DNA of 24,457 bases from a virus, in UHGV virus genome UHGV-0127207. One strand, written 5' to 3'. How positions within the stretch are numbered: position 1 is the stretch's first letter; each line of letters begins with the position of its first letter. A model generated the notes under the pieces. That model had not been told where the DNA came from. It made no database searches and saw nothing but the letters and a program-made list of their open reading frames with translations. Shown here piece after piece: positions 3,488 to 24,457 of the stretch. Both the position numbers and the translations under genes were made by a program.

Positions 3488-3582
3488 AGGGTTAGGTTGC
3501 ACGGACCTTGAATCTATGGCATCAATACGTCCTTGTGTGGTAAATGACACAAATACAATTCCAATCAAAGAAAGGTAAAAGA

Positions 3583-4113
3583 ATGAGCCATCCAATTGAT
3601 TATTACGCTATAGAAGAACACGCAAGAATAATTGAGCAATTATGCTGTTCATCTGAATTTTATTTACAGCGTATATATTCCACACAGAAAGTATATGATG
3701 GTTCTATAGTAACTGAATTTGAAATGGAGGAGTTATCGTACAACGGATGGTTGGAATATACCATTAGCAACAATCTTATTAGCCTTTGTACAAAACTACG
3801 AATTCTCCAAGACACTAGTGAACATGAGTGGAACCCAGATTACTCACCTGAGAAAGAAGCATTTGAAGAACATGAAAATATACTTTTTGTTATAGATGGT
3901 CATGTTAAAGATTCTATACGCGAATGCTGCAATAAAATTATTCACGCATTAAGTTTTGAGTTAACAAAAAAGACCGGCAAAAATGGAATAAAATATTGGG
4001 ACGGTTCTATTATTGCTTCTGGGGTTCAAAACAAAAAAAACTGGAAAATTAAAATAGACCTTTTCCCTTTTTGCCAAAGCATAAAAAGTTATTTAAGTTT
4101 ATTAAGAGCGTAA
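3583..4113 (+). CDS. Hypothetical protein of unknown function (moron inserted between tail genes S and V, opposite strand)
   Basis: ORF 3544..4113; ATG at 3583 preceded by AAAGG with 7 nt spacer; visibly A+T-rich; opposite orientation to all flanking structural genes; no motif I can recognise. Confidence 0.6.
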   Translation: MSHPIDYYAIEEHARIIEQLCCSSEFYLQRIYSTQKVYDGSIVTEFEMEELSYNGWLEYTISNNLISLCTKLRILQDTSEHEWNPDYSPEKEAFEEHENILFVIDGHVKDSIRECCNKIIHALSFELTKKTGKNGIKYWDGSIIASGVQNKKNWKIKIDLFPFCQSIKSYLSLLRA

Positions 4114-4118
4114 ACATT

Positions 4119-4571
4119 CTAATTTTTCATCAATAAATACTTTAAAAGTAAATCTCTTACTTCATTTTCAGTATGTTCATTTAAACCCAGCAATTTTCGG
4201 GATGGATACTTAATGACTCCCCCCTTTGGACTGACGCGATCGCGCAGACCGTAGTGATGAACACGGGCAATACGCTGTACCTTACCTTCAAACTGTACGC
4301 TGGCAGAATCCGCGCTGGCGGCAGTTCTCAGGTATTTTGTAGTGCGCAGCTTTGCAAACATCTGACGTTTGATGCGCCCCTTCTTGCTGCGTGCTGTTAC
4401 CCTGCGCGGCTCATAACTGCTGCCATCTGGATTGCGCTGCATCCTGATATTCTGCTGCTGTGTCCGGCGCAGTTCCTGCGCCAGCTGGCGCATCATTCGG
4501 CTTCTTGCGGCTGGTTCCAGATTCGCCAGCAAAGCACTCAGCCAGTCGTCCACCTTCTGCAGTTCAGCCAC
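4119..4571 (-). CDS. S: Tail completion protein gpS
   Basis: 150 aa ORF (MAELQKVDDWLSALLANLEPAARSRMMRQLAQELRR...), P2 gpS-like; overlaps R stop. Confidence 0.85.
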   Translation of the reverse strand: MAELQKVDDWLSALLANLEPAARSRMMRQLAQELRRTQQQNIRMQRNPDGSSYEPRRVTARSKKGRIKRQMFAKLRTTKYLRTAASADSASVQFEGKVQRIARVHHYGLRDRVSPKGGVIKYPSRKLLGLNEHTENEVRDLLLKYLLMKN

Positions 4572-5016: not shown

Positions 5017-5248
5017 TAATCATGTCCACTTTGTCTGCACAGACCGCCCAGGCGGCCTCCGTTTCATCCAGCAATGCGTTCAGATCACCGTTAGTGCGCG
5101 GCGCTGCCTGCTCCAGCCGACACGGCGTCACTCGCGGACAACCACTGACGGTAAGCTGCACCTCCGGTGAGTGCCGGACGTTCCCGCAGCCGGATAATGT
5201 CAGCAGGCAAAGGAGTATCAGCCCAGCGGCGTAAATCCTCGTTCTCAC
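4958..5248 (-). CDS. lysC: Outer-membrane lipoprotein spanin (LysC/Rz1-like)
   Basis: 96 aa; N-terminal signal with lipobox LTLSGC; starts inside lysB in another frame and runs past its end, the classic overlapped spanin arrangement. Confidence 0.8.
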   Translation of the reverse strand: MRTRIYAAGLILLCLLTLSGCGNVRHSPEVQLTVSGCPRVTPCRLEQAAPRTNGDLNALLDETEAAWAVCADKVDMIIACQERNSEQTTIPAPRPQ

Positions 5249-7369: not shown

Positions 7370-8020
7370 TCAGCGGCTGTCATTGCGCAGTCTGCGCTCC
7401 AGCTGCTGTTTGTCTTTTTTCACGCCACAGCGGGGATCGAGCTGTAACGCATGGTTGAGATGATTAAGGGCAGACGCCGGATTGCCTTCACTCAGGACCG
7501 CGCCAATCGCTTTATGCAGACGCGCCCGTGACTGATCCGGCATATCCAGACCGTCTGTCAGCTCCAGCGTCTGTAGCAACAGATCGGCATCAAAGCCGGT
7601 GGCGGCAAGCATTGCGCTCTGCGCCGCGTCTGCCATTTCCTCTGCCAGCACGGTCTGCACGTTGCGGTTACCCAGCGGCATCACCCACCCATGACGCAGG
7701 GCATGACGCCCAATCTCCAGCGCCCCGGCATAATCTCCGGCATCAATGCGCCACAGCATCACGTACATCAGCACGTCATCCTGTTGAGCTCCTCCGGCAG
7801 CCAGGACGCCCTCCGCCCAGGCGGCATATTTCGGCAGCAGCTCCACCTTGATTTCCGCTTTTTTCACCGTGGACTGAACGCCCTTGAGACGGCGGCGGTC
7901 TTCCGCCAGTTGCAGCAGCATCAGGTCATAGCCCGATGCGTGGCGAACACTGCCGCCCTCACGGGCGGCCTGTTCAGCCTGAACGCGCAGGCGATGCTGC
8001 CGTGCGGGACTCAGGCTCAT
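7370..8020 (-). CDS. M: Terminase small (endonuclease) subunit gpM
   Basis: 216 aa ORF directly downstream of capsid gene N; P2 gpM-like. Confidence 0.85.
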   Translation of the reverse strand: MSLSPARQHRLRVQAEQAAREGGSVRHASGYDLMLLQLAEDRRRLKGVQSTVKKAEIKVELLPKYAAWAEGVLAAGGAQQDDVLMYVMLWRIDAGDYAGALEIGRHALRHGWVMPLGNRNVQTVLAEEMADAAQSAMLAATGFDADLLLQTLELTDGLDMPDQSRARLHKAIGAVLSEGNPASALNHLNHALQLDPRCGVKKDKQQLERRLRNDSR

Positions 8021-10074: not shown

Positions 10075-11841
10075 ATGAACACCACACTGACACCCGCAGA
10101 TCTCGATCCCCGTCGGCAGGCCATGCTGCTGTACTTTCAGGGATACCGCGTCGCCCGCATTGCTGAAATGCTGGGCGAGAAAGTTGCAACCGTTCACAGC
10201 TGGAAAAAACGCGACAAGTGGGGTGACTATGGGCCGCTGGATCAGATGCAGCTCACCACCGCCGCACGCTACTGCCAGCTCATTATGAAGGAGCACAAAG
10301 AAGGGAAAGATTTCAAAGAGATTGACCTGCTGGCGCGCCAGTCTGAGCGCCACGCGCGGATCGGCAAGTTTAACAATGGCGGTAACGAAGCCGACTTAAA
10401 CCCTAACGTCGCCAACCGCAACAAAGGCCCGCGCCGTCAGCCGGAAAAGAACGTTTTCACCGATGAACAAATTGAGAAGCTGGAAGAAATCTTCCACTCC
10501 TCCATGTTCAACTACCAGCGCCACTGGTGGGAAGCCGGAAAAACCAACCGCATCCGCAACCTGCTGAAGTCACGCCAGATCGGCGCGACCTTTTACTTTG
10601 CCCGTGAAGCCCTGATTGACGCCCTGCTGACCGGACGTAACCAGATTTTCCTTTCCGCCAGTAAGGCACAGGCCCACGTCTTTAAGCAGTACATCATCGA
10701 CTTCGCCAAAGAAGTGGAGGTGGAGCTGAAAGGCGATCCGATGGTGCTTCCTAACGGGGCCACGCTTTACTTCCTCGGCACCAATGCCCGCACAGCCCAG
10801 AGTTATCACGGTAACCTGTATCTGGATGAATATTTCTGGATACCGAAATTCCAGGAGCTGCGCAAAGTGGCTTCCGGTATGGCTATTCACAAAAAATGGC
10901 GACAAACCTATTTTTCCACGCCATCCAGCCTGACCCACAGTGCTTATCCGTTCTGGTCCGGTGCGCTGTTCAACCGTGGACGCAACAAAGCCGACAAGGT
11001 GGACATCGACCTGTCCCACAGCAATCTGGCCCCCGGCCTGCTGTGCGCAGACGGGCAGTACCGCCAGATAGTCACTGTGGAAGATGCGGTGCGCGGCGGC
11101 TGCAACTTGTTCGACCTCGACCAGTTACGCATGGAATACAGCCCGGATGAATACCAGAACCTGCTGATGTGTGAGTTCGTGGACGATCTCGCGTCCGTGT
11201 TCCCGCTCAGCGAGCTGCAGGGGTGCATGGTGGACAGCTGGGAAGTCTGGACCGACTTTCATGCACTGGCGCTGCGCCCGTTTGGCTGGCGCGAAGTGTG
11301 GATCGGTTATGACCCGGCAAAAGGTACGCAAAACGGCGACAGCGCCGGGTGCGTGGTGGTGGCACCGCCAGCCGTGCCGGGCGGTAAGTTCCGCATTCTT
11401 GAGCGTCACCAGTGGCGCGGAATGGACTTCCGCGCCCAGGCTGACGCCATCAAAAAACTGACCGAACAGTACAACGTGACCTACATCGGCATCGACTCAA
11501 CCGGCGTCGGTCACGGGGTTTACGAGAACGTGAAAGCGTTCTTTCCTGCCGTCCGGGAGTTTGTCTATAACCCCAACGTTAAAAACGCCCTGGTACTCAA
11601 GGCCTACGACATTATCAGCCACCGCCGTCTGGAGTTTGACGCCGGGCACACCGACATTGCGCAGTCATTTATGGCAATCCGTCGCGCCACCACCGCCAGC
11701 GGCAACCGCCCGACCTATGAAGCCAGCCGCAGCGAAGAAGCCAGCCATGCCGATCTGGCCTGGGCAACAATGCACGCACTGTTTAACGAACCGCTGCAGG
11801 GCGAGTCCGCCAATACCAGCAATATTGTGGAGATTTTTTGA
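10075..11841 (+). CDS. P: Terminase large (ATPase) subunit gpP
   Basis: 588 aa (MNTTLTPADLDPRRQAMLLYFQGYRVARIAEMLGEKVATVHSWKKRDKWGDYG...), P2 gpP-like; followed by and overlapping Q. Confidence 0.9.
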   Translation: MNTTLTPADLDPRRQAMLLYFQGYRVARIAEMLGEKVATVHSWKKRDKWGDYGPLDQMQLTTAARYCQLIMKEHKEGKDFKEIDLLARQSERHARIGKFNNGGNEADLNPNVANRNKGPRRQPEKNVFTDEQIEKLEEIFHSSMFNYQRHWWEAGKTNRIRNLLKSRQIGATFYFAREALIDALLTGRNQIFLSASKAQAHVFKQYIIDFAKEVEVELKGDPMVLPNGATLYFLGTNARTAQSYHGNLYLDEYFWIPKFQELRKVASGMAIHKKWRQTYFSTPSSLTHSAYPFWSGALFNRGRNKADKVDIDLSHSNLAPGLLCADGQYRQIVTVEDAVRGGCNLFDLDQLRMEYSPDEYQNLLMCEFVDDLASVFPLSELQGCMVDSWEVWTDFHALALRPFGWREVWIGYDPAKGTQNGDSAGCVVVAPPAVPGGKFRILERHQWRGMDFRAQADAIKKLTEQYNVTYIGIDSTGVGHGVYENVKAFFPAVREFVYNPNVKNALVLKAYDIISHRRLEFDAGHTDIAQSFMAIRRATTASGNRPTYEASRSEEASHADLAWATMHALFNEPLQGESANTSNIVEIF

Positions 11842-12875
11842 TGGGAAAGAGTAAGAAGAACCGCGCTGCGGCGACGAAACAGATCCAGCATAAAAACCAG
11901 ACTTCAGCCGAAGCATTCAGCTTCGGCGATCCCGTTCCGGTTCTGGACCGCCGTGAACTACTGGACTATGTGGAATGCGTACAGACAGATCGCTGGTATG
12001 AGCCGCCAGTGAGTTTTGACGGACTGGCGCGAACCTTCCGCGCTGCCGTACATCATAGCTCCCCGATTGCAGTAAAGTGCAACATTCTGACCAGTACCTA
12101 CATCCCTCACCCGCTGCTCAGCCAGCAGGCTTTTTCACGTTTTGTGCAGGACTATCTGGTATTTGGTAACGCCTATCTGGAGAAACGCACGAACCGCTTC
12201 GGTGAGGTTATCGCCCTTGAGCCTGCTCTGGCAAAATACACCCGACGCGGGTTAGACCTGGATACCTACTGGTTTGTGCAATACGGTATGACAACCCAGC
12301 CGTATCAGTTCACGAAAGGCAGCATTTTTCATCTGATGGAACCGGATATTAATCAGGAGATCTACGGCCTGCCCGGCTATCTTTCTGCCATTCCGTCAGC
12401 CCTGCTCAACGAATCCGCCACGCTGTTCCGCCGCAAGTATTACATTAACGGTAGTCATGCAGGCTTCATCATGTACATGACCGATGCCGCGCAGAACCAG
12501 GAGGATGTGAACAACCTCCGCAAGGCAATGAAAAGTGCTAAAGGACCGGGCAACTTCCGCAACCTGTTTATGTACTCGCCTAACGGCAAAAAAGACGGCC
12601 TTCAGATCATTCCTCTGTCAGAAGTCGCGGCGAAGGATGAGTTTTTGAATATCAAAAATGTTAGTCGCGATGACATGATGGCGGCACACCGCGTGCCGCC
12701 GCAGATGATGGGGATTATGCCTAATAATGTTGGGGGATTTGGGGATGTTGAGAAGGCGGCGCGTGTTTTCGTACGCAACGAACTTACACCACTCCAAGGC
12801 CGCGTGATAGAAATTAACGAGTGGCTGGATGATGAAGTGATTCGCTTTAACCCATACCTGACTGAGGAAGATTAA
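11838..12875 (+). CDS. Q: Portal (capsid vertex) protein gpQ
   Basis: 345 aa; start overlaps P stop; P2 gpQ-like length and position. Confidence 0.9.
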   Translation: MMGKSKKNRAAATKQIQHKNQTSAEAFSFGDPVPVLDRRELLDYVECVQTDRWYEPPVSFDGLARTFRAAVHHSSPIAVKCNILTSTYIPHPLLSQQAFSRFVQDYLVFGNAYLEKRTNRFGEVIALEPALAKYTRRGLDLDTYWFVQYGMTTQPYQFTKGSIFHLMEPDINQEIYGLPGYLSAIPSALLNESATLFRRKYYINGSHAGFIMYMTDAAQNQEDVNNLRKAMKSAKGPGNFRNLFMYSPNGKKDGLQIIPLSEVAAKDEFLNIKNVSRDDMMAAHRVPPQMMGIMPNNVGGFGDVEKAARVFVRNELTPLQGRVIEINEWLDDEVIRFNPYLTEED

Positions 12876-12961
12876 CGCTCACCTGACCTATCCTTCATAT
12901 CAACCGCTCTTCCTGGGGCGGTTTTACCCCCACTTCAATAGACGGTTTAGGGATGACAATC

Positions 12962-12982
12962 AAAACGCTCCTAAGAGCGTTT
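12962..12982. terminator. Candidate bidirectional hairpin terminator between convergent Q and the accessory operon
   Basis: AAACGCTC-CTAA-GAGCGTTT inverted repeat with T-rich stretches on both strands; the stop codon of the 239-aa gene lies in the loop. Confidence 0.35.
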
Positions 12983-13690
12983 CTGTTTACGGTTTGACTC
13001 TATTTGTTTTTTTAGCTGGATAAGCCTTTCAACTAACTCAAACACTTTTGTACTTGGATTATCAGTATCGCTAGCTTCAGCAGCCTGTAAACTTCTCTTA
13101 GCCCTAAGGACTACTTCATTTAAATCTTTTGACTCTAAAGCGTTTAGGGTTTTCTGAAAAATCCCTTTTGAGCCTTTCTCATAGTCCTTAATATATTTTC
13201 TTAACTCATTTACAATTTGATTTCCTGAACTATTACCAGGTAAATTTCTAAATGCCTTTGTCGAATAGGTATAATGTAGAAGTAACCAATATTCAAAACA
13301 AGGTACTGAATTCACAGTAAACCAAGTTGAGCTTGGTTTACTTCTCCTGATAGCGTCAAGCGCTGCCATGTAATCAGAGTGGGCATCCTTATCAATCACT
13401 ACAAAGATTTGATCATAAGGAGCCCCCTGTTCAGTCATTTTTTTATGCTGTGCTTTTGCATGACGAACAACACACATAGGACTAGAGCCACATTCTCCAG
13501 TTACATCAATTACACTTGCTGTAAGTAATTCAAAATGATTTATCAAATCCTCAAAGTAATTTGGTTCAGTTTTTTTACCCTCACAAACAATTAATATTTT
13601 AGCGAGAGGGGATTTTATTGCATTACGTCTTGCTAGATCCTTAGCCGTTTTAGGGGCACGTTTCTTTTTGAATAAATCCTCGCTTCCCAT
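12971..13690 (-). CDS. TOPRIM-like protein (RloB/AbiLii-type or DUF4435/AriB-type), second gene of a candidate anti-phage pair
   Basis: 239 aa; N-terminal ILIVCEGKKTEPNYF and downstream VVIDKDAHSD consistent with a TOPRIM E...DxD core; A+T-rich; starts 1 nt after the upstream ATPase gene stops. Confidence 0.6.
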   Translation of the reverse strand: MGSEDLFKKKRAPKTAKDLARRNAIKSPLAKILIVCEGKKTEPNYFEDLINHFELLTASVIDVTGECGSSPMCVVRHAKAQHKKMTEQGAPYDQIFVVIDKDAHSDYMAALDAIRRSKPSSTWFTVNSVPCFEYWLLLHYTYSTKAFRNLPGNSSGNQIVNELRKYIKDYEKGSKGIFQKTLNALESKDLNEVVLRAKRSLQAAEASDTDNPSTKVFELVERLIQLKKQIESNRKQKRS

Positions 13691-13691
13691 A

Positions 13692-14957
13692 TCAAATCCC
13701 CGTCAATTTCTTGATGAACGGCAATGCTCCATACCGACCGTCTAGGTATGCGGCTTCTAAATTTTCTCTTCCTTTCCTTGGACTAAAATCAGTCAATGGA
13801 TATAGATTAGTTTCACTGAGTTCATTTTTCTCACAAAACCAAACTTGATCACGTCTAAAAATGCTTTGATTCAGAATGGATGTTTCATGTGTTGAGAAAA
13901 TTAACTGCGCACCTTTTTTATTAGTAACCGGACTATTAAAAAGATTTACCAAGAAACTAACCAACTTTGGATGCAATGTATCGTGAAGCTCGTCGATTAA
14001 TAGTACATATCCATTATCGAGCGCATCTAACCATGGACCAGCTAAAGAAAAAAGCTTTTGAGTGCCATGAGATTCCTCTTCAAGAGAAAAACTTACCGGC
14101 TCACCTTTATCGTTATAATGGACAGTAGTAACATCAAAAACTTCTTTATCCTTCATATTAGAAATAACGATTTTTTTGATATCATCTGGCATATCAGATG
14201 GCAAATCATCTGGATTAAATTTTTCTTTCTTAACTAAAACATCATCAATGCCAATATCTGCAGCTTGCAAAAAATTCAAGATATCTTTCTTCATATCCTC
14301 GGTGCAGCGTTTAGCGGAGAATGTATTAGCCCATCCATTAATTCCAGAAAGTCTCAGTGTTTTTTTAAACCAAGTAAAAACAGGCTTAAGCTGCTCGCTA
14401 TTTAATTGAACAGCTGTAGACAAGAACAGGGCATTATTTCTAGTTGAACGCTGCCAAACTTGTTTTTCACCAAGTAGTGATGCGCCAAAATCCCAATCAT
14501 ATTCCTGCTTCTCTTCATCCCAAGCTCTGAAATACCACTTTTGAGGCCTTCCTTTTGGGTACGCAAAGAGCCATTCATCAATAATTCTTTCATTTGTAGC
14601 AGAAAAACCAAATTGATACCGGGTGCCCTCTGCAATAAAAGTAACTTCAAATTCAGTAGGTTTTTTAATTGAATCTGAATCAAGCTTGAAGGGGAATACG
14701 GGAACCTCTTCACCAGCCTGAGAGTTAGATGCAGAGTGGATAACTAAATCCATCATAGCCCTGACAGCCAGAAGTACATTCGACTTGCCCGCTGCATTCG
14801 CACCGTAAATAACAGCTGACTTTAGAACATTAAGGTTAACGTTTCCCTCTACTGTAAAGATATTCTCTTTTAACTCGTTACTTTTGTTAGCAATAAGTGA
14901 AAGTGTTTGTTTGTTTTTGATTGAGAGATAGTTCTCAACATTGAATTCAATAAGCAT
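13692..14957 (-). CDS. ABC/SMC-like P-loop ATPase (AAA_15/AAA_21-type), first gene of a candidate anti-phage pair
   Basis: 421 aa; Walker A GANAAGKSN, Walker B VLLIDELHD, H-loop-like FSTHET; strong RBS AGGAGGG before the ATG; A+T-rich. Confidence 0.7.
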   Translation of the reverse strand: MLIEFNVENYLSIKNKQTLSLIANKSNELKENIFTVEGNVNLNVLKSAVIYGANAAGKSNVLLAVRAMMDLVIHSASNSQAGEEVPVFPFKLDSDSIKKPTEFEVTFIAEGTRYQFGFSATNERIIDEWLFAYPKGRPQKWYFRAWDEEKQEYDWDFGASLLGEKQVWQRSTRNNALFLSTAVQLNSEQLKPVFTWFKKTLRLSGINGWANTFSAKRCTEDMKKDILNFLQAADIGIDDVLVKKEKFNPDDLPSDMPDDIKKIVISNMKDKEVFDVTTVHYNDKGEPVSFSLEEESHGTQKLFSLAGPWLDALDNGYVLLIDELHDTLHPKLVSFLVNLFNSPVTNKKGAQLIFSTHETSILNQSIFRRDQVWFCEKNELSETNLYPLTDFSPRKGRENLEAAYLDGRYGALPFIKKLTGI

Positions 14958-15135
14958 TTTTACCCTCCTGGTGGTTGAATAATCTTAGTTGCAAAAGCAA
15001 CAAACGTCACCAACAACCAAATCTTAAGGCATTTTATGACAAAAAACGTCAAAATGGTACTCATAAAATGAATTTAAACCAGTTTATTAGACTTAACATC
15101 TAATATTTACGGCTAGCTTTCGCCCTGAACGCGCG

Positions 15136-15154
15136 CTCGTATCCCCGCCACGCC
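15136..15154 (-). other. Candidate cos (cohesive end) site of the phage genome
   Basis: Minus strand reads GGCGTGGCGGGGATACGAG; the first 13 nt match my recollection of the 186/P2 19-nt cohesive end (GGCG(T/A)GGCGGGGAAAGCA(T/C)); G+C-rich motif in a non-coding A+T-rich stretch. Confidence 0.35.
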
Positions 15155-15533
15155 TGCCCGCTTTATGCAGTGGTTTTCATGCACATGCATGACATGAGCA
15201 AAAGCCCGCCAGTTCTGGCGGATCTGAGCAAAGACGATCCTCAATCGATCATGCGATTTCATGCAGCATAGTCATGCACTGTCAAGGAAGTGAAAATCCG
15301 TATCTGAATGGCCACTTGAAAAACGGATCATACGGGTTTACAAAGATGAATGTTCGCTGTGAACGGGAAGCGGAAGTTAGCTTTCAGATAACATAATCCA
15401 TATGCACGAGAACCTCTAAAATAGAATGGGACACCTAAGCGGGGTACTTACAACGATTCTTTCCAGATTCACAGTTAACACTCTGTTTGGCGTATTTTTA
15501 TTCAAATAGCAAACACCAATAAAAGGAGTTTCC

Positions 15534-15869
15534 ATGAACAATATTCCCCCTATACCACAGTTAGGAATTTATGTCTCAAAAATCGATCCCACCCTACGTA
15601 TCACTGTAACCGATGTTGATATTGTTGATGGTGAGGATGATTCTCCTGATGATGAGTTGTTTTATTTAGTCCACTGGATCGAGGGGGAAGATGAAAGTGA
15701 TATGACAGCAATGGGATTTGAGCTAGACCCAGTAGAGTGGCAGGCTTTCGTTGAATCTGAGCAATTAGTGTTTGAGCGTGATCCGTACATGGATTCAATC
15801 CCCGAAAATTCAAACTTGGCAAAGATTCGGGATTTTCTCATGAAGACTAAACAGAATGATCATTCGTAA
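15534..15869 (+). CDS. Small strongly acidic protein of unknown function (candidate DNA-mimic / anti-restriction)
   Basis: 111 aa; strong RBS AAAAGGAG before the ATG; about 26 Asp/Glu against about 7 Lys/Arg by hand count, including runs DGEDDSPDDE and EGEDESD; A+T-rich; opposite strand to flanking genes. Confidence 0.6.
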   Translation: MNNIPPIPQLGIYVSKIDPTLRITVTDVDIVDGEDDSPDDELFYLVHWIEGEDESDMTAMGFELDPVEWQAFVESEQLVFERDPYMDSIPENSNLAKIRDFLMKTKQNDHS

Positions 15870-16061: not shown

Positions 16062-16295
16062 TTAATGCAGCCAGCTGTCGTCCTCCCACACCTTCTGCAT
16101 AATTTTCATCACTTGTTTTCTTTCTTCATCCAGTTGCAGTCCGGTTAGTTCCACACCGTTAGAGCTACCTTTGCGAATGCGAATTACCGTTTTGGGATAC
16201 AGGGGGCGCAGATTGCGGTAAAGCTCGGATTCAAGGGCGTCCAGGGTAGACTGGCTAATCTTCTGCTCTTTATCGATCATTATTTCAATGCGCAT
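16062..16295 (-). CDS. dinI: DinI-family protein (DNA damage-inducible protein I homologue)
   Basis: ORF 16062..16367; ATG at 16295 preceded by GAGGTGA gives 77 aa MRIEIMIDKEQKISQSTLDALESELYRNLRPLYPKTVIRIRKGSSNGVELTGLQLDEERKQVMKIMQKVWEDDSWLH, alignable to E. coli DinI (MRIEVTIAK...ELSRR...ETWESADDWF). Confidence 0.8.
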   Translation of the reverse strand: MRIEIMIDKEQKISQSTLDALESELYRNLRPLYPKTVIRIRKGSSNGVELTGLQLDEERKQVMKIMQKVWEDDSWLH

Positions 16296-16305
16296 AAAAG
16301 TCACC

Positions 16306-16494
16306 TCAGCTGATGACATCCATTGAGCGGTTGTATTCGTGGCTTCTGATTTTTGCCATGAGTTCATCAGTCAATTCAGAAACCCACTGCAGAGCCAGCC
16401 CCTTCTCTTCATCACTACACTCACTAGCCGCTACAAGCTTAAGAAAAAAATCAATGCGCTGGAGCTTCAAAGACTCCAAAAAATAGTCCTGCAT
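16306..16494 (-). CDS. Small SOS-controlled protein, candidate antirepressor (Tum-like role)
   Basis: 62 aa; strong RBS AGGAGG; first gene after the LexA box and directly upstream of dinI; functional assignment is inference from context only. Confidence 0.45.
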   Translation of the reverse strand: MQDYFLESLKLQRIDFFLKLVAASECSDEEKGLALQWVSELTDELMAKIRSHEYNRSMDVIS

Positions 16495-16646: not shown

Positions 16647-19061
16647 TTAATACAGGTTCCGCCACTTATCATCTTCCTTCAGACGCTGGTTCCGATAGAA
16701 GATACGCAGGCCTGCTCCTGACGGAATACTGCCGCCGCGAAGGAGCAAATCGACTTCTTTCTCGCTGCCATCAAATCCCCTGGACTTCAGTTCATAGACG
16801 AGCTGCTGTCGCTGATGGTCTGTAATTCGCTGTTTGTAGTCTTTACGCCGTTTCGGTTTCACCTGGCGTAACCTTGCAGCCAGTTCCCGGCGCTCTTTTT
16901 TGCTCATACTGTGCAGGTAATCGTGCAACTCCTTGTCATTCATACGGGTAATATCCGTTCTGGAGTCCCCATCAGCTGATTTGTCTTTCCCTTGTTGGTT
17001 TAAATTTTCAGCAAGGGGACAGTTATTGCCACGAGTCCAAGGGGCGCAAGCGCCCTGGTCGGCTACCGCCTCCTGAACGTCAACGGCCTTACGAACCATT
17101 TTCCACTTCACTGCATGAGTGCAGATCTTGCCCTCTGCAATGGGTGACCAGATGCCATAAATACGAATGCCGTGATCGCCATAGGCGGTCGGCTCTTCGT
17201 TGATTTCATAAGCGGTTCTGATAAGGTGATATTTACGGGGAACCAGTACGCCGCCCTGCTTCATGATGTAGGTGGCAAAACAACCAGCATCAGCAGCAGC
17301 CAGGATGGCATCAAGGCGCGGGTCATCCAGTATCGGCGCACCTGCTTTTTTGTCACCCTGTTGCCTTGCCGCCTGACCAGCCAGCAAGCGAAGTTCACGG
17401 TAAGCCTGACGTCCCGGAATACCAAAGAAGCGGAACTGCTGAACACGATGCAGAGACGCCCAGGCATTAACGTATTCGGCGTTATCACGCAGGGATTTAC
17501 CCGTTTCCTTGCTGATCTCGCCAGCCAGACCACGCCCGTCAATGTTCTTACTGATGTATTTCGCGATATAGCTTGTCGGTGTTCCTTTGCGCGGGTTAAT
17601 CAGCTCAGACTTAAAGCGTGGCCCCGTGTTGTTGCCCAGCTCCTCGCGGTCTACACGGATGGCAAACTTACGCAGTAATGCAGTGATGGCGCGGCGGTCT
17701 TTTTTACGCATGAAGCACATGAGATGCCAGTGCACAGTACCGTCATGGTGCGGCTCAGCCACCCGCACGCCATACCAGCGCAACCCGGTTTTGTGCATTG
17801 CCTTACGAAATGCAGCAAACATGCCGACCATATAATCGCTGCTTTGTCTTACCGTCGCATTTGTCCAGGTCGGGTTGGGTCTGCCGTTGTTGAGCGTGGA
17901 ATGGAAACGTGACGGACAGGTGATAGTGTAGAAAACGGCGCAGTCACCGCGCATTTCCGCGATAAGCTCCAGACCTTTAACACAGGCCATCATCTCATTG
18001 CGGCGATGCGCAGGGTTGCTGCTGCTGGCGTTTACCACATCCTCCATGTCCAGCGTGTCGCCGTCTTCGTTCACCAGTTCATGAGAACGGAAAAACTCCA
18101 GCGACTTACGGCGCTGCTCACGTTTATGCATCACGGCTTCATAGCTGACATAGGGAGATGCTTTTTTGCTGACCAGGCAGACAGCACGCAACTGCTCTTC
18201 CCGCCATTCGCAACGCATCTTCCATAATTTCCGATACCACCAGTCGGCGCACAACATACGCGCCAGCGAACCCGGAATGAGTTCATAGGGCACGGGTTTA
18301 CGGCGGTTTCTTTTCCGACGGAGTTGCTCAAACGCAGGTGGGATGACATCCAGACGCAGGGTTTCCGCCGCCACCTTTTCCCATGTCTTGCGGATTTCTT
18401 CTGGCTTAACGTCATCGGTGGCATACAAATCGCCACAAGCTGCCTCAAGGCACATGCTCATATGCGCAGCTACCAGGGTGGACAGGCGTTTCACCTGATC
18501 CTGACTCATTTCAGGCAGGATCAGCAGGCCCTCCAGCCCTTGATGGCTTGCCATAAAACGGAAAGAAGCAGACAGCTGACTGTCACGTACACAATCCAGT
18601 CGCTCCAGACATGGCTTAATCGTCTCACGCAAATAGCGGGAATAAGCCTTTGGCCTGCCCAGGCTGCTGAAGTATTCGATACGTTGCATCAGCGGCTTGC
18701 TGATATGGATGGGCTGGGCGCTGACGTCCGCCAGAATGACCATGTCCGGGTTAAAACGCTGCTGTTCATGCGCTAGCTTTGCCCGGCTAATGAGCTTATC
18801 CTGCTCCATTTCGCGCTGGACAGGATCACGAGATTCATTAAAGAAATAACGCTCCCAGACCTGCTCACTCAGTGCATCGCGGCACAGCTGTTCCTGCTCA
18901 TTATCGGCAGCGTACAGAGTGATCAGGTTTAAAAGTGCAGACTCCGGAGCAACTTCCGCCGGGTCCAGATAAGGGTTAATGGCCTTTTTCGGGCCGTTCC
19001 ATGAAAATGCTGCAGCGGCCTCGTTAAAGCCGCTAGAGTTGCTCATATCGTCATGACTCAT
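16647..19061 (-). CDS. A: Replication initiation protein gpA (rolling-circle nicking endonuclease)
   Basis: 804 aa; P2/186 gpA-like by size and position at the end of the early operon; start overlaps dam stop. Confidence 0.85.
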
Positions 19062-20439: not shown

Positions 20440-20781
20440 TTAATTCGGCATGGTTAGCCGTCTGGGAAATAAGCTCACCACTGCACGAAAATGATTCATT
20501 GCTTTAATCAGCTCCCGCTTTTCGTCAGTGGTCAGCTCATTAATGCTGATGCTATGACGTTCAGCTGGAATTTTTGCCATAAAGAATATGGCAGCCAGTG
20601 CCCGTTTATTTTGTTCATTATTGATATCCCGTGGATCACGCATATCTTTAATAAACCGCTCAAGCTCTGACTCAATATTCAGGCCAAAAACTTTCGCCCT
20701 TAACTCCGCAATGTGATTAAGTCCATTCAGGCGTTCACCGGGGCTTAATGGAACAGTTGCTGCAGCGCCATTAATTGCCAT
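20440..20781 (-). CDS. Hypothetical early-operon protein
   Basis: 113 aa ORF in the cII-to-A operon; no recognisable motif. Confidence 0.5.
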   Translation of the reverse strand: MAINGAAATVPLSPGERLNGLNHIAELRAKVFGLNIESELERFIKDMRDPRDINNEQNKRALAAIFFMAKIPAERHSISINELTTDEKRELIKAMNHFRAVVSLFPRRLTMPN

Positions 20782-20803
20782 ACTTCATATCCCCCAAACG
20801 CAG

Positions 20804-21028
20804 CTATCGTTCTTTGTTCTTACGGTAACGCTCAAGAGGAGATACATTTTTTCGTATCGTCTCTTTAACCTGCTCTCCCCGTAAAAACGTCCCATCCTTT
20901 AACGCGAAAAAGTAACTGCCATCGCCCGACAATGACGGATAGCAACAGAGCAAATCATCTTCAGGTACTGAATAACTCTCCCCTCTGTAACGAAACTGAT
21001 AAACCACTTCACTTTCTGCCGCATACAT
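20804..21028 (-). CDS. Hypothetical early-operon protein
   Basis: 74 aa ORF; overlaps the 3-prime part of ORF 20899..21225 in another frame. Confidence 0.45.
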   Translation of the reverse strand: MYAAESEVVYQFRYRGESYSVPEDDLLCCYPSLSGDGSYFFALKDGTFLRGEQVKETIRKNVSPLERYRKNKER

Positions 21029-21195
21029 TTGGACTTTCTCCGTTTCCTCGTGGTCAATTCAGACAGCAATTCATCTTGTGAATGACATGGATGCCAGCGT
21101 TTTCCATCCTCACCCGTGATCCAGCCGTGACCGTAGTGCATTGCCGGGCTTTGTTTTACCAGCAGCGATGCAAATGATGGTTCTTTCGTCAGCAT
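20899..21195 (-). CDS. Hypothetical protein (conflicts with 20804..21028; at most one frame is likely real across the overlap)
   Basis: ORF 20899..21225 with internal ATG at 21195 (MLTKEPSFASLLVKQSPAMHYGHGWITGEDGKRWHPCH...); immediately downstream of cII. Confidence 0.3.
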   Translation of the reverse strand: MLTKEPSFASLLVKQSPAMHYGHGWITGEDGKRWHPCHSQDELLSELTTRKRRKSKCMRQKVKWFISFVTEGRVIQYLKMICSVAIRHCRAMAVTFSR

Positions 21196-21980: not shown

Positions 21981-22045
21981 AAGGCAACATTCCTTCTAGA
22001 TATGGCTTGTGGCGAGCCGTTGTTTGTCGTGATTAGTAGTGAAGG

Positions 22046-22119
22046 CTCCAAAAGAACACTTCTGGTTCAACTTTAAGATCGCTTTTGGAATCTGTCAACG
22101 AATTTTGGATTTCTTTGGA
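22046..22119. promoter_or_regulatory. Immunity switch region with repeated TTTTGGA-type motifs (candidate CI operators, convergent pR/pL arrangement)
   Basis: CCAAAAG at 22047-22053 inverted relative to CTTTTGG at 22082-22088; direct copies (T/C)TTTGGA at 22083, 22103 and 22113; lies between the divergent apl and cI genes. Confidence 0.4.
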
Positions 22120-22125
22120 GGACTT

Positions 22126-22695
22126 GTGGATTTCAATAGCGGCGGTAAGAAAGCCATAGAACGTTTAGTTGAAGCATATGGGTTCGGTACCCGTCAGGCT
22201 CTCTGTGATCATTTAGGTGTTTCTAAGAGCACCATGGCAACGCGCTATATGCGTGATATTTTTCCAGCAGATTGGGTAATCCAGTGCGCCCTTGAAACGG
22301 GCACCTCGCTTAATTGGCTAACAACAGGGCATGGTTCAAAGCAAGCATCAGCAAATACAAATACTATAGAAGTAGAAAAATATTTATTGTCTGATGGAGC
22401 ATTGCAGAAAGACGGTTTTTATATTTTTGATAAGGGATTTCTACCCTCTACGTTTAAAAAACCTTTTGTCATCACAGATAACAATTCTGAATTTATTTGT
22501 GATAAAGAATTTGATGATATACGTGATGGTAAATGGGTAATAAGTATTGATGGCGAAATAACGATCCGTGACATTACTCGTTTACCCGGTGGAAGAATCT
22601 TCGTCGAGGGTGGAAACAGAGCCTTCGAATGCAAGATAGAAGACATTGAAATAATTGGTAAAATTATAAGTTTAACAGTCAAGTATGTTAAATAG
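22126..22695 (+). CDS. cI: CI immunity repressor (186-type, N-terminal HTH)
   Basis: ORF 22039..22695; GTG at 22126 preceded by GGAGGA gives about 189 aa; HTH region GTRQALCDHLGVSKSTMATRYMRD; start uncertain (SD spacing short). Confidence 0.75.
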   Translation: MDFNSGGKKAIERLVEAYGFGTRQALCDHLGVSKSTMATRYMRDIFPADWVIQCALETGTSLNWLTTGHGSKQASANTNTIEVEKYLLSDGALQKDGFYIFDKGFLPSTFKKPFVITDNNSEFICDKEFDDIRDGKWVISIDGEITIRDITRLPGGRIFVEGGNRAFECKIEDIEIIGKIISLTVKYVK

Positions 22696-23090: not shown

Positions 23091-24143
23091 ATGGCAGTAC
23101 GAAAACTCACCACAGGGAAATGGCTTTGCGAATGTTACCCCGCCGGACGTAGTGGGCGTCGTGTGCGTAAACAATTCGCCACCAAAGGCGAAGCTCTGGC
23201 TTTTGAGCGCCACACGATGGAAGAAACCGAAGCAAAGCCCTGGCTGGGTGAATCAGTGGATCGTCGAACACTGAAAGACGTAGTTGAGCTATGGTTCAAA
23301 CTACATGGTAAATCTCTGACAGCTGGGCAGCATGTCTATGACAAATTGCTGTTGATGGTTGACGCTCTGGGTAATCCTCTTGCAACCGATCTCACCTCTA
23401 AAATGTTTGCCCACTATCGAGATAAACGCCTGACAGGCGAGATCTACTTCAGCGAGAAATGGAAGAAAGGAGCAAGCCCGGTCACCATTAACCTGGAGCA
23501 AAGCTATCTAAGTAGTGTTTTTAGCGAACTATCCCGTCTGGGCGAATGGTCGTATCCGAACCCACTGGAGAACATGCGAAAATTCACCATCGCAGAAAAA
23601 GAGATGGCATGGCTTACCCATGAGCAGATTGTTGAATTGCTGGCTGATTGCAAACGTCAGGACCCAATTCTGGCACTGGTAGTTAAGATATGCTTAAGCA
23701 CAGGCGCACGCTGGCGTGAAGCCGTAAATCTTACCCGCTCACAGGTGACCAAATACCGAATTACCTTTGTCAGAACGAAGGGGAAGAAAAACAGAAGCAT
23801 CCCTATCAGTAAAGAGCTTTACGAAGAGATCATGGCGCTTGATGGGTTCAATTTCTTTACAGACTACTATTTTCAATTTTTATCCGTGATGGAAAAAACG
23901 TCTATCGTGCTCCCTCGCGGTCAACTCACACACGTTCTGCGCCATACGTTTGCGGCGCACTTCATGATGTCGGGTGGAAACATTCTCGCCTTACAAAAAA
24001 TTCTCGGACACCACGATATAAAAATGACTATGCGTTACGCACATCTGGCACCAGATCATCTGGAAACGGCGCTCCGTTTCAATCCTCTGGCAACGCTGCC
24101 AAGTGGCGACAAAGTGGCGGCAGCGGTTGGCATTACCCCGTAA
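23091..24143 (+). CDS. int: Tyrosine integrase (P2/186 family)
   Basis: ORF 22935..24143; ATG at 23091 (MAVRKLTTGKWLCECYPAGR...) taken as start; C-terminal catalytic region HVLRHTFAAHFMMSGGNILALQKILGHHDIKMTMRYAHLAPDHL with catalytic Tyr in MRYAHL. Confidence 0.9.
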   Translation: MAVRKLTTGKWLCECYPAGRSGRRVRKQFATKGEALAFERHTMEETEAKPWLGESVDRRTLKDVVELWFKLHGKSLTAGQHVYDKLLLMVDALGNPLATDLTSKMFAHYRDKRLTGEIYFSEKWKKGASPVTINLEQSYLSSVFSELSRLGEWSYPNPLENMRKFTIAEKEMAWLTHEQIVELLADCKRQDPILALVVKICLSTGARWREAVNLTRSQVTKYRITFVRTKGKKNRSIPISKELYEEIMALDGFNFFTDYYFQFLSVMEKTSIVLPRGQLTHVLRHTFAAHFMMSGGNILALQKILGHHDIKMTMRYAHLAPDHLETALRFNPLATLPSGDKVAAAVGITP

Positions 24144-24166
24144 TAACCACCACTGACCACCAACCC

Positions 24167-24198
24167 AACTTATTGTTTTTAATCTAACTTATTGTTTT
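24167..24198 (+). repeat. Direct repeats AACTTATTGTTTT x2 just after int (candidate Int arm-type or att-associated sites)
   Basis: Identical 13-mers at 24167-24179 and 24186-24198, separated by 6 bp. Confidence 0.5.
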
Positions 24199-24202
24199 CA
24201 TT

Positions 24203-24228
24203 AACCCGTTTACATAAATGGGTTTTTT
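24203..24228 (+). terminator. Rho-independent terminator-like hairpin downstream of int
   Basis: AACCCGTTTA-CA-TAAATGGGTT stem (one G-T wobble) followed by TTTTTT. Confidence 0.5.
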
Positions 24229-24457
24229 GTTATCTAAAACTTATCTACTACCCTGCAACCCTCTCAACCATCCTCAAAATCTCCTCGCGCGATAGCGGCT
24301 TACGGTCGGTGACAAAATGCAGCGTCATCCCCTCAATAAACGCATCAAGCGCGCGGGCGGTTCCGGGTTCAAACCATTGTTCGAGCGTTTGCTGACTGCG
24401 CTGCACTGAGAGATCCCCTCATAATTTCCCCAAAACGTAACCATGTGTGAATAGATT

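Follow-up and report, generated by a model that had tools for sequence, protein, structure and literature searches.

The window analysed here, a stretch of 24,457 nucleotides, is by its gene content and sequence relationships a P2-family prophage of E. coli, in which the genes and sites follow one another in the order A, dinI, an acidic ORF, the putative cohesive-end site (cos), AbiL, Q, and P. The features on which the following account draws are these:

7370–8020, minus strand: terminase small subunit gpM (PHROG 74, 1.4e-88; 43% identical to P2 M/186 R)
10075–11841, plus strand: terminase large subunit gpP (Pfam Terminase_6N, Terminase_6C, and Terminase_5)
11838–12875, plus strand: portal gene Q (Pfam Phage_portal)
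12903–12926, plus strand: hairpin AACCGC...GCGGTT followed by TTTTA, just past the Q stop (read from the sequence)
12971–13690, minus strand: AbiLii/RloB-family protein, 239 aa (Pfam RloB, 6.5e-35; PADLOC AbiLii, 1.6e-29)
13692–14957, minus strand: AbiLi-type AAA_21 ATPase, 421 aa (Pfam AAA_21, 5.7e-39; PADLOC AbiLi, 1.1e-100)
15129–15183, minus strand: counterpart of the 55-bp cos core of P2/P4 (the 19-mer with 29 bp toward the right end and 7 bp toward the left end)
15130–15280, no strand assigned: conserved cos island, 151 bp (limits from viral contigs, phage records, and E. coli genomes)
15136–15154, minus strand: predicted cohesive-end sequence, 19 nt (homologous to 186/PSP3/P2/P4; identical to the HS phage 1 cos and the SEN8 putative cos)
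15205–15222, minus strand: inverted repeat or terminator-like hairpin TCCGCCAGAACTGGCGGG followed by CTTTTG (scan and alignment)
15534–15869, plus strand: acidic protein, 111 aa, pI 4.05 (phrog_17127)
16062–16367, minus strand: dinI/tum-like gene downstream of A (Pfam DinI, 1.2e-22)
16647–19061, minus strand: replication gene A (Pfam Phage_GPA, 1.5e-126)

Between the start of the ATPase gene (14957) and that of the acidic ORF (15534) lie 576 bp (14958–15533) in which no ORF reaches 60 aa, and within them the minus strand reads GGCGTGGCGGGGATACGAG at 15154–15136. The 186 record begins with GGCGTGGCGGGGAAAGCAT, annotated as cos and present in the same form in PSP3, and the P2 and Wphi records begin with GGCGAGGCGGGGAAAGCAC. 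The first 13 nt of the window 19-mer are those of the 186 cohesive end, and two of the six remaining positions agree (positions 14–19 being TACGAG in the window, AAGCAT in 186, and AAGCAC in P2), which gives an identity of 15/19 to 186 and PSP3 and of 14/19 to P2 and P4. The 19-mer fits the G-rich P2-family pattern GGCG(A/T)GGCGGGGA... homologous to the known ends, and 2260 bp separate its end (15136) from the Q stop codon (12873–12875). The preliminary description of this DNA had reported just such a match of 13 nt to the 186 end, followed by divergence, in a non-coding stretch of about 575 bp some 2.2 kb from Q, and these points hold; so does its arrangement of the neighbors, with an ATPase/TOPRIM pair, identified here as AbiL (ATPase/RloB), on the Q side of the motif and the acidic protein and dinI, by gene order, on the A side.

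For P2, 186, and PSP3, the two genome ends were joined and the junction was compared with the window. The alignment extends well past the 19-mer: the left flank (A/T)AAAGCGGGCA and the right flank GCGCGC are kept, and the homology also takes in a TGCAT(T/G)AAAACC motif upstream and further TGCAT repeats. The orientation is likewise that seen in P2 and 186: the GGCG strand runs in the direction of Q, and the site is placed between the A-side accessory genes and Q. PMC5694545 attributes a 55-bp cos core to Ziermann and Calendar (1990); we delimited this core from the block shared by P2 and P4 (29 + 19 + 7 bp), the extent of the essential cos region being taken from that secondary citation together with the conservation seen in our analysis. 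Over the core the window is identical to 186 at 43/55 positions, to PSP3 at 44/55, to P2 at 41/55, to P4 at 42/55, and to SEN8 at 52/55. Across the 19-mer itself the identity is 19/19 with HS phage 1, SEN8, Fels-2, and Cartapus; the SEN8 and Cartapus records label it "putative cos", a feature that we did not count as proof because it was annotated by similarity and not by experiment.

The near-identical HS phage 1 offers support of an experimental kind. Zund et al. (2021, Microbiome, PMC8008629) used mitomycin C for the induction of E. coli HS, and by read-start/PhageTerm analysis thereafter the HS phage 1 cos was given as GGCGTGGCGGGGATACGAG at NC_009800.1 926016–926034 (PMC8008629, Suppl. 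Table 4); within the region that we examined (NC_009800.1 916000–949000) the sequence lies exactly at 926016–926034. Over 19.5 kb, the identity between HS phage 1 and the window is about 96%, and the terminase is near-identical, with 587/588 residues of gpP and 215/216 of gpM the same (99.5–99.8%). The portal protein is 93.3% identical to that of HS phage 1 (93% against 99.8% for gpP) and 62.6% identical to P2 Q. As in the window, HS phage 1 carries cargo between cos and the portal gene; there, however, the Q-side cargo is a gene for a 463-aa hypothetical protein (926128–927519) instead of AbiL, and the A-side cargo differs too. Despite the backbone identity of about 96%, three further stretches of the window (3500–4223, 20781–21064, and 21994–22171) are without a match in HS phage 1 and may be additional variable loci. 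Window positions 24100–24405 are 99% identical to the HS chromosome flanking the prophage near rcdA, which indicates that the window comes from E. coli, and the prophage is probably integrated at an attachment site shared with HS phage 1.

Could so short a motif be a G-rich sequence that matches by chance and has no part in packaging? Its length is the one point in favor of such a reading, which is highly improbable. The 13-mer GGCGWGGCGGGGA is present in a single copy in the window and 0 times in 100 shuffles (0 expected occurrences), 151 bp around the motif are conserved across hundreds of genomes, and the alignment to the known cos regions goes far beyond the 19-mer; taken with the HS phage 1 cos, these results effectively refute a chance match. 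The interpretation of the motif as cos in the preliminary description is thereby supported, both by the position of the motif, homologous to the annotated ends, and by the identical HS phage 1 cos; the alignment with P2, 186, and relatives that it had proposed as a check pairs the site and its flanks base for base with P2, 186, and PSP3, and its interval of 15121–15300 nearly coincides with the conserved island at 15130–15280.

We accordingly consider it very probable (about 93%) that 15130–15280 is a functional cos of a Fels-2/HS phage 1-type E. coli P2-family prophage, at which cleavage would take place. Outside the 19-mer the island shares only 87.8% identity with its HS phage 1 counterpart, and full cos function is therefore predicted here on the strength of homology. 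With only 24.5 kb of the prophage visible, and many P2-like prophages being non-inducible, one might suppose that the site descends from a true cos but belongs to a defective or cryptic prophage that no longer uses it for packaging. This is improbable given that A, Q, P, and M are all full-length, that the 19-mer and the core are intact, and that P and M are 99.5–99.8% identical to those of the inducible HS phage 1 (PMC8008629); the cognate terminase genes M and P are thus both present and intact in the window.

The distance from Q calls for separate consideration. In P2, 186, and PSP3 cos lies 167–178 bp from the portal stop, whereas in the window 2260 bp with two genes intervene, and the compact arrangement of P2 and 186 (cos about 170 bp from the portal stop, with the terminator alone between) is not found. 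The short distance in these phages would be in keeping with a true cos beside Q, within about 170 bp of the portal stop, the motif at 15136–15154 then being a duplicated or decoy copy. Yet the spacer between Q and AbiLii is 95 bp long and holds a hairpin only, the window has no second 13-mer and no second site within three mismatches of the 186 19-mer, and relatives with the same terminase have their cos at the corresponding distal position. With only a hairpin in the spacer and no site of three or fewer mismatches, a second cos near Q was rejected, and we give the decoy reading next to no credence. The hairpin in the spacer (12903–12926) lies where the P2 and 186 records have the tQ/tW terminator and forms the Q-side edge of the cargo; a terminator scan made no call at 12903–12926, and Rfam returned no match in the whole window. 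The terminase of the window is also removed from that of P2 and 186, with only 43% (M) and 63% (P) identity, in agreement with the divergence of the 19-mer toward its 3′ end; together these sequence differences suggest that the window belongs to a distinct cos/terminase group, apart from P2 and 186.

The limits of the island emerged from a scan of viral contigs (IMG/VR) for the exact 19-mer, which gave at least 120 loci, the basis of our boundary counts. Among the matches listed for 120 contigs, homology stops on the Q side at 15130 in 88 of 121 HSPs (range 15118–15131) and on the A side at 15277–15285 in 98 of 121. Past the Q-side break it resumes, among the matches listed, only inside the 3′ end of Q, at 12756–12868. 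In relatives with other cargo this restart lies 2–40 codons before the end of Q and not past the stop codon, from which it appears that the C-terminus of the portal protein is often exchanged along with the cargo. The island is the only conserved DNA between the accessory region of gene A and Q, with variable cargo on both sides, a pattern that recurs in at least 120 viral contigs, 81 phage records, and about 1300 of 5426 complete E. coli genomes.

Conservation beside the predicted cut is asymmetric, with about 126 bp on the A side against 6–7 bp on the Q side. The A side is also where TGCAT/ATGCA accumulates: over the 131 bp upstream of the cut there are six copies where 0.24 would be expected (about 25-fold), making this the densest interval in the window. 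The island is a probable terminase recognition region, and we infer that the TGCAT repeats are terminase-binding elements. As the conservation is weighted to the A side, the recognition elements would lie almost wholly on the right-end side, so that DNA could be inserted directly past the cut, on the Q side, with packaging unharmed. The island further contains the inverted repeat at 15205–15222 (CCGCCAG-AA-CTGGCGG), which is kept in the Fels-2-type and 186/PSP3 cos regions and absent from P2; among these regions the arms are kept and the center varies (GAAC, GTTC, GAGC), and the repeat could be a terminator or a protein-binding site. In some RefSeq/GenBank records short CDSs labeled "hypothetical protein" are annotated across the cos island (5038–5232 in locus L282, where the CDS crosses the 19-mer itself, and 3519–3689 in locus L214); these are probably spurious gene calls.

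P2-family phages package their DNA by a staggered cut that leaves 19-nt 5′ overhangs, and for HS phage 1, whose 19-mer is identical, a cut of this kind is reported on the basis of read-start/PhageTerm analysis (PMC8008629). The 186 record states "top strand cut at 5′ end and bottom strand cut at 3′ end". On the strength of this knowledge and the 186 annotation, the following course can be proposed for the window. After excision and replication, the gpM/gpP terminase would recognize the island and introduce staggered nicks at the borders of GGCGTGGCGGGGATACGAG, on the minus strand 5′ of 15154 and on the plus strand between 15136 and 15135, so that the cohesive ends would be 5′ overhangs of 19 nt. 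The larger part of the island, about 126 bp including the TGCAT repeats, would remain on the gene-A side of the cut. The left end of the virion DNA would then open with the AbiLi–AbiLii operon, followed by Q and P, and the right end would carry the acidic ORF, dinI, and A. Because only some 6–7 bp are conserved past the 19-mer on the Q side, the interval from cos to the Q terminator would be free for cargo, and an AbiL-type system would be expressed from the prophage.

Genes between cos and Q are the norm for this cos type and not unusual. Among the matches listed, 85 viral contigs have both the window 19-mer and the downstream 3′ end of Q, and in these the cos-to-Q gap is 144–3522 bp with a median of 1644; it is at most 250 bp, as compact as in P2, in nine of the 85, above 500 bp in 76, and above 1 kb in 61. 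The A-to-cos gap ranges, again among the matches listed, from 483 to 3797 bp in contigs with the 19-mer, and the values of the window (2260 bp from cos to Q and 1492 bp from A to cos) are typical. SEN8, Cartapus, Fels-2, and HS phage 1 each have genes between cos and the portal gene. When the nine commonest Q-side cargo clusters of at least 200 aa and one more cluster (c33) were scanned with PADLOC, eight of the ten matched known or candidate defense families, namely retron RT-Toprim I-C, ShosT + ShosA, PD-T7-4, PDC-S49, PDC-M03A + PDC-M03B, and PDC-S33. The backbone itself is present in 1353 of 5426 complete E. coli genomes, and in the best-matching ones the A-to-Q annotations include retron Ec67, retron St85, SIR2 + ATPase, an ATP-dependent nuclease, TIGR02391, and DUF4062, among others. 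Placement between cos and the portal gene was checked in three of these: retron Ec67 (FHI_NMBU_11), TIGR02391 (AR_452), and AbiL (ETEC4091). In FHI_NMBU_11, for instance, the retron Ec67 RT lies between an identical 19-mer and the portal gene. The retron Ec67 prophage was described with its cargo between cos and the portal-operon terminator by Dodd and Egan (1996, Virology 219:115), going by the title cited in PMC5694545. E. coli prophages of this kind have a backbone 98% identical to that of the window and the same slot with the same boundaries; their cargo, in contrast, is a retron RT-Toprim and not AbiL.

According to the accessible portions of two studies (Rousset et al., 2022, PMC9122126; a 2026 NAR paper, PMC13586616), the gpA–gpQ interval beside cos is a defense hotspot of P2-like phages, and the window conforms to it, having variable, defense-enriched cargo between conserved A and Q. 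In those portions, A-to-Q is taken as one unit, whereas here it consists of two slots split by cos. With the exact 19-mer published as cos and both slot and hotspot described before, the finding is correct but represents already known biology; the only local novelty is the uncommon AbiL cargo in a known slot.

That cargo is a two-gene operon, with AbiLi and AbiLii adjacent on the same strand, 1 bp apart and AbiLi first, transcribed away from cos and toward Q. Its G+C content is 34–41% against 52–60% in the phage backbone, and the nearest relatives of AbiLi, in a collection of bacterial genomes with one genome per species, are at most 62% identical and come from environmental gammaproteobacteria. 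Being AT-rich and this distant from its relatives, the pair looks like acquired cargo, and we regard it as a candidate anti-phage system, putatively acquired by horizontal transfer and predicted to be active. AbiL is rare in the cos–Q slot: it was found there in one complete E. coli genome, ETEC4091 (98% identical), and also occurs in one Klebsiella phage, ST13-OXA48phi12.1 (91% identical). A promoter scan gave no consensus sigma-70 promoter for AbiL in 14958–15129 and no consensus promoter for either AbiL or the acidic ORF in the intergenic DNA.

On the other side of the island, the acidic protein (26 D/E against 7 K/R) occupies the position of P2 old/tin and is likewise transcribed away from cos, so that both cargo units of the window point away from the site. 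It has no Pfam or PADLOC match, phrog_17127 has no function assigned, and its charge makes a DNA mimic or anti-defense protein possible; the protein itself recurs beside this cos in many E. coli prophages. The two sides are shared in different combinations. ETEC4091 has cos, AbiL, and Q in common with the window and a different A-side cargo; in AR_452 and many others, the A-side cargo and cos are 100% identical to the window and divergence begins at 15130. These patterns of sharing indicate that the two slots combine independently. A tentative and rather unlikely extension is that the cos island serves as a joint at which two defense-cargo slots are reassorted among P2-like phages, by homologous recombination within the island or by annealing of identical 19-nt sticky ends, the latter, between co-resident phage genomes, being speculation. 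Such a joint would explain both the break of homology at almost a single base (15130, 6 bp past the cut) and the sharing of Q-side cargo alone with ETEC4091 and of A-side cargo alone with AR_452.

P4-like satellites provide a further comparison. Besides the similarity of its core, P4 resembles the window in having variable genes (gop/beta/cII) just past the 19-mer, on the side where AbiL lies. P4-like elements differ in the 19-mer itself, which in the sampled loci ends in AAAGCAC, AGAGCAT, and related forms and never in ATACGAG: the ATACGAG-type 19-mer is absent from 80 psu-containing P4-like loci (L134–L213), and no satellite-like contig occurs among the at least 120 contigs with the exact 19-mer. 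This want of ATACGAG-type satellites is uninformative and not contrary to the reading of the motif as cos. The psu loci themselves contain at least six variants of the 19-mer, differing mainly at positions 5 and 13–19 with GGCG.GGCGGGG constant; the 3′ third of the overhang thus evolves freely in P4-like satellites. One contig, IMGVR_UViG_2558860442_000001, carries two elements (L209 and L072), a P2-like one with an ATACGAG-type cos and a P4-like psu locus with GGCGTGGCGGGGAGAGCAT.

While our knowledge of P2-family packaging is left unchanged by these results, they fix the map of the prophage, with the AbiL operon expected at the beginning of the virion chromosome and the acidic ORF at its end. 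They are also useful for delimiting cargo and for engineering P2-like phages and cosmids, in that insertions just beyond +6 of the cut are apparently tolerated. Finally, the published A-to-Q hotspot would really be two cargo slots, each transcribed away from the 151-bp cos island.
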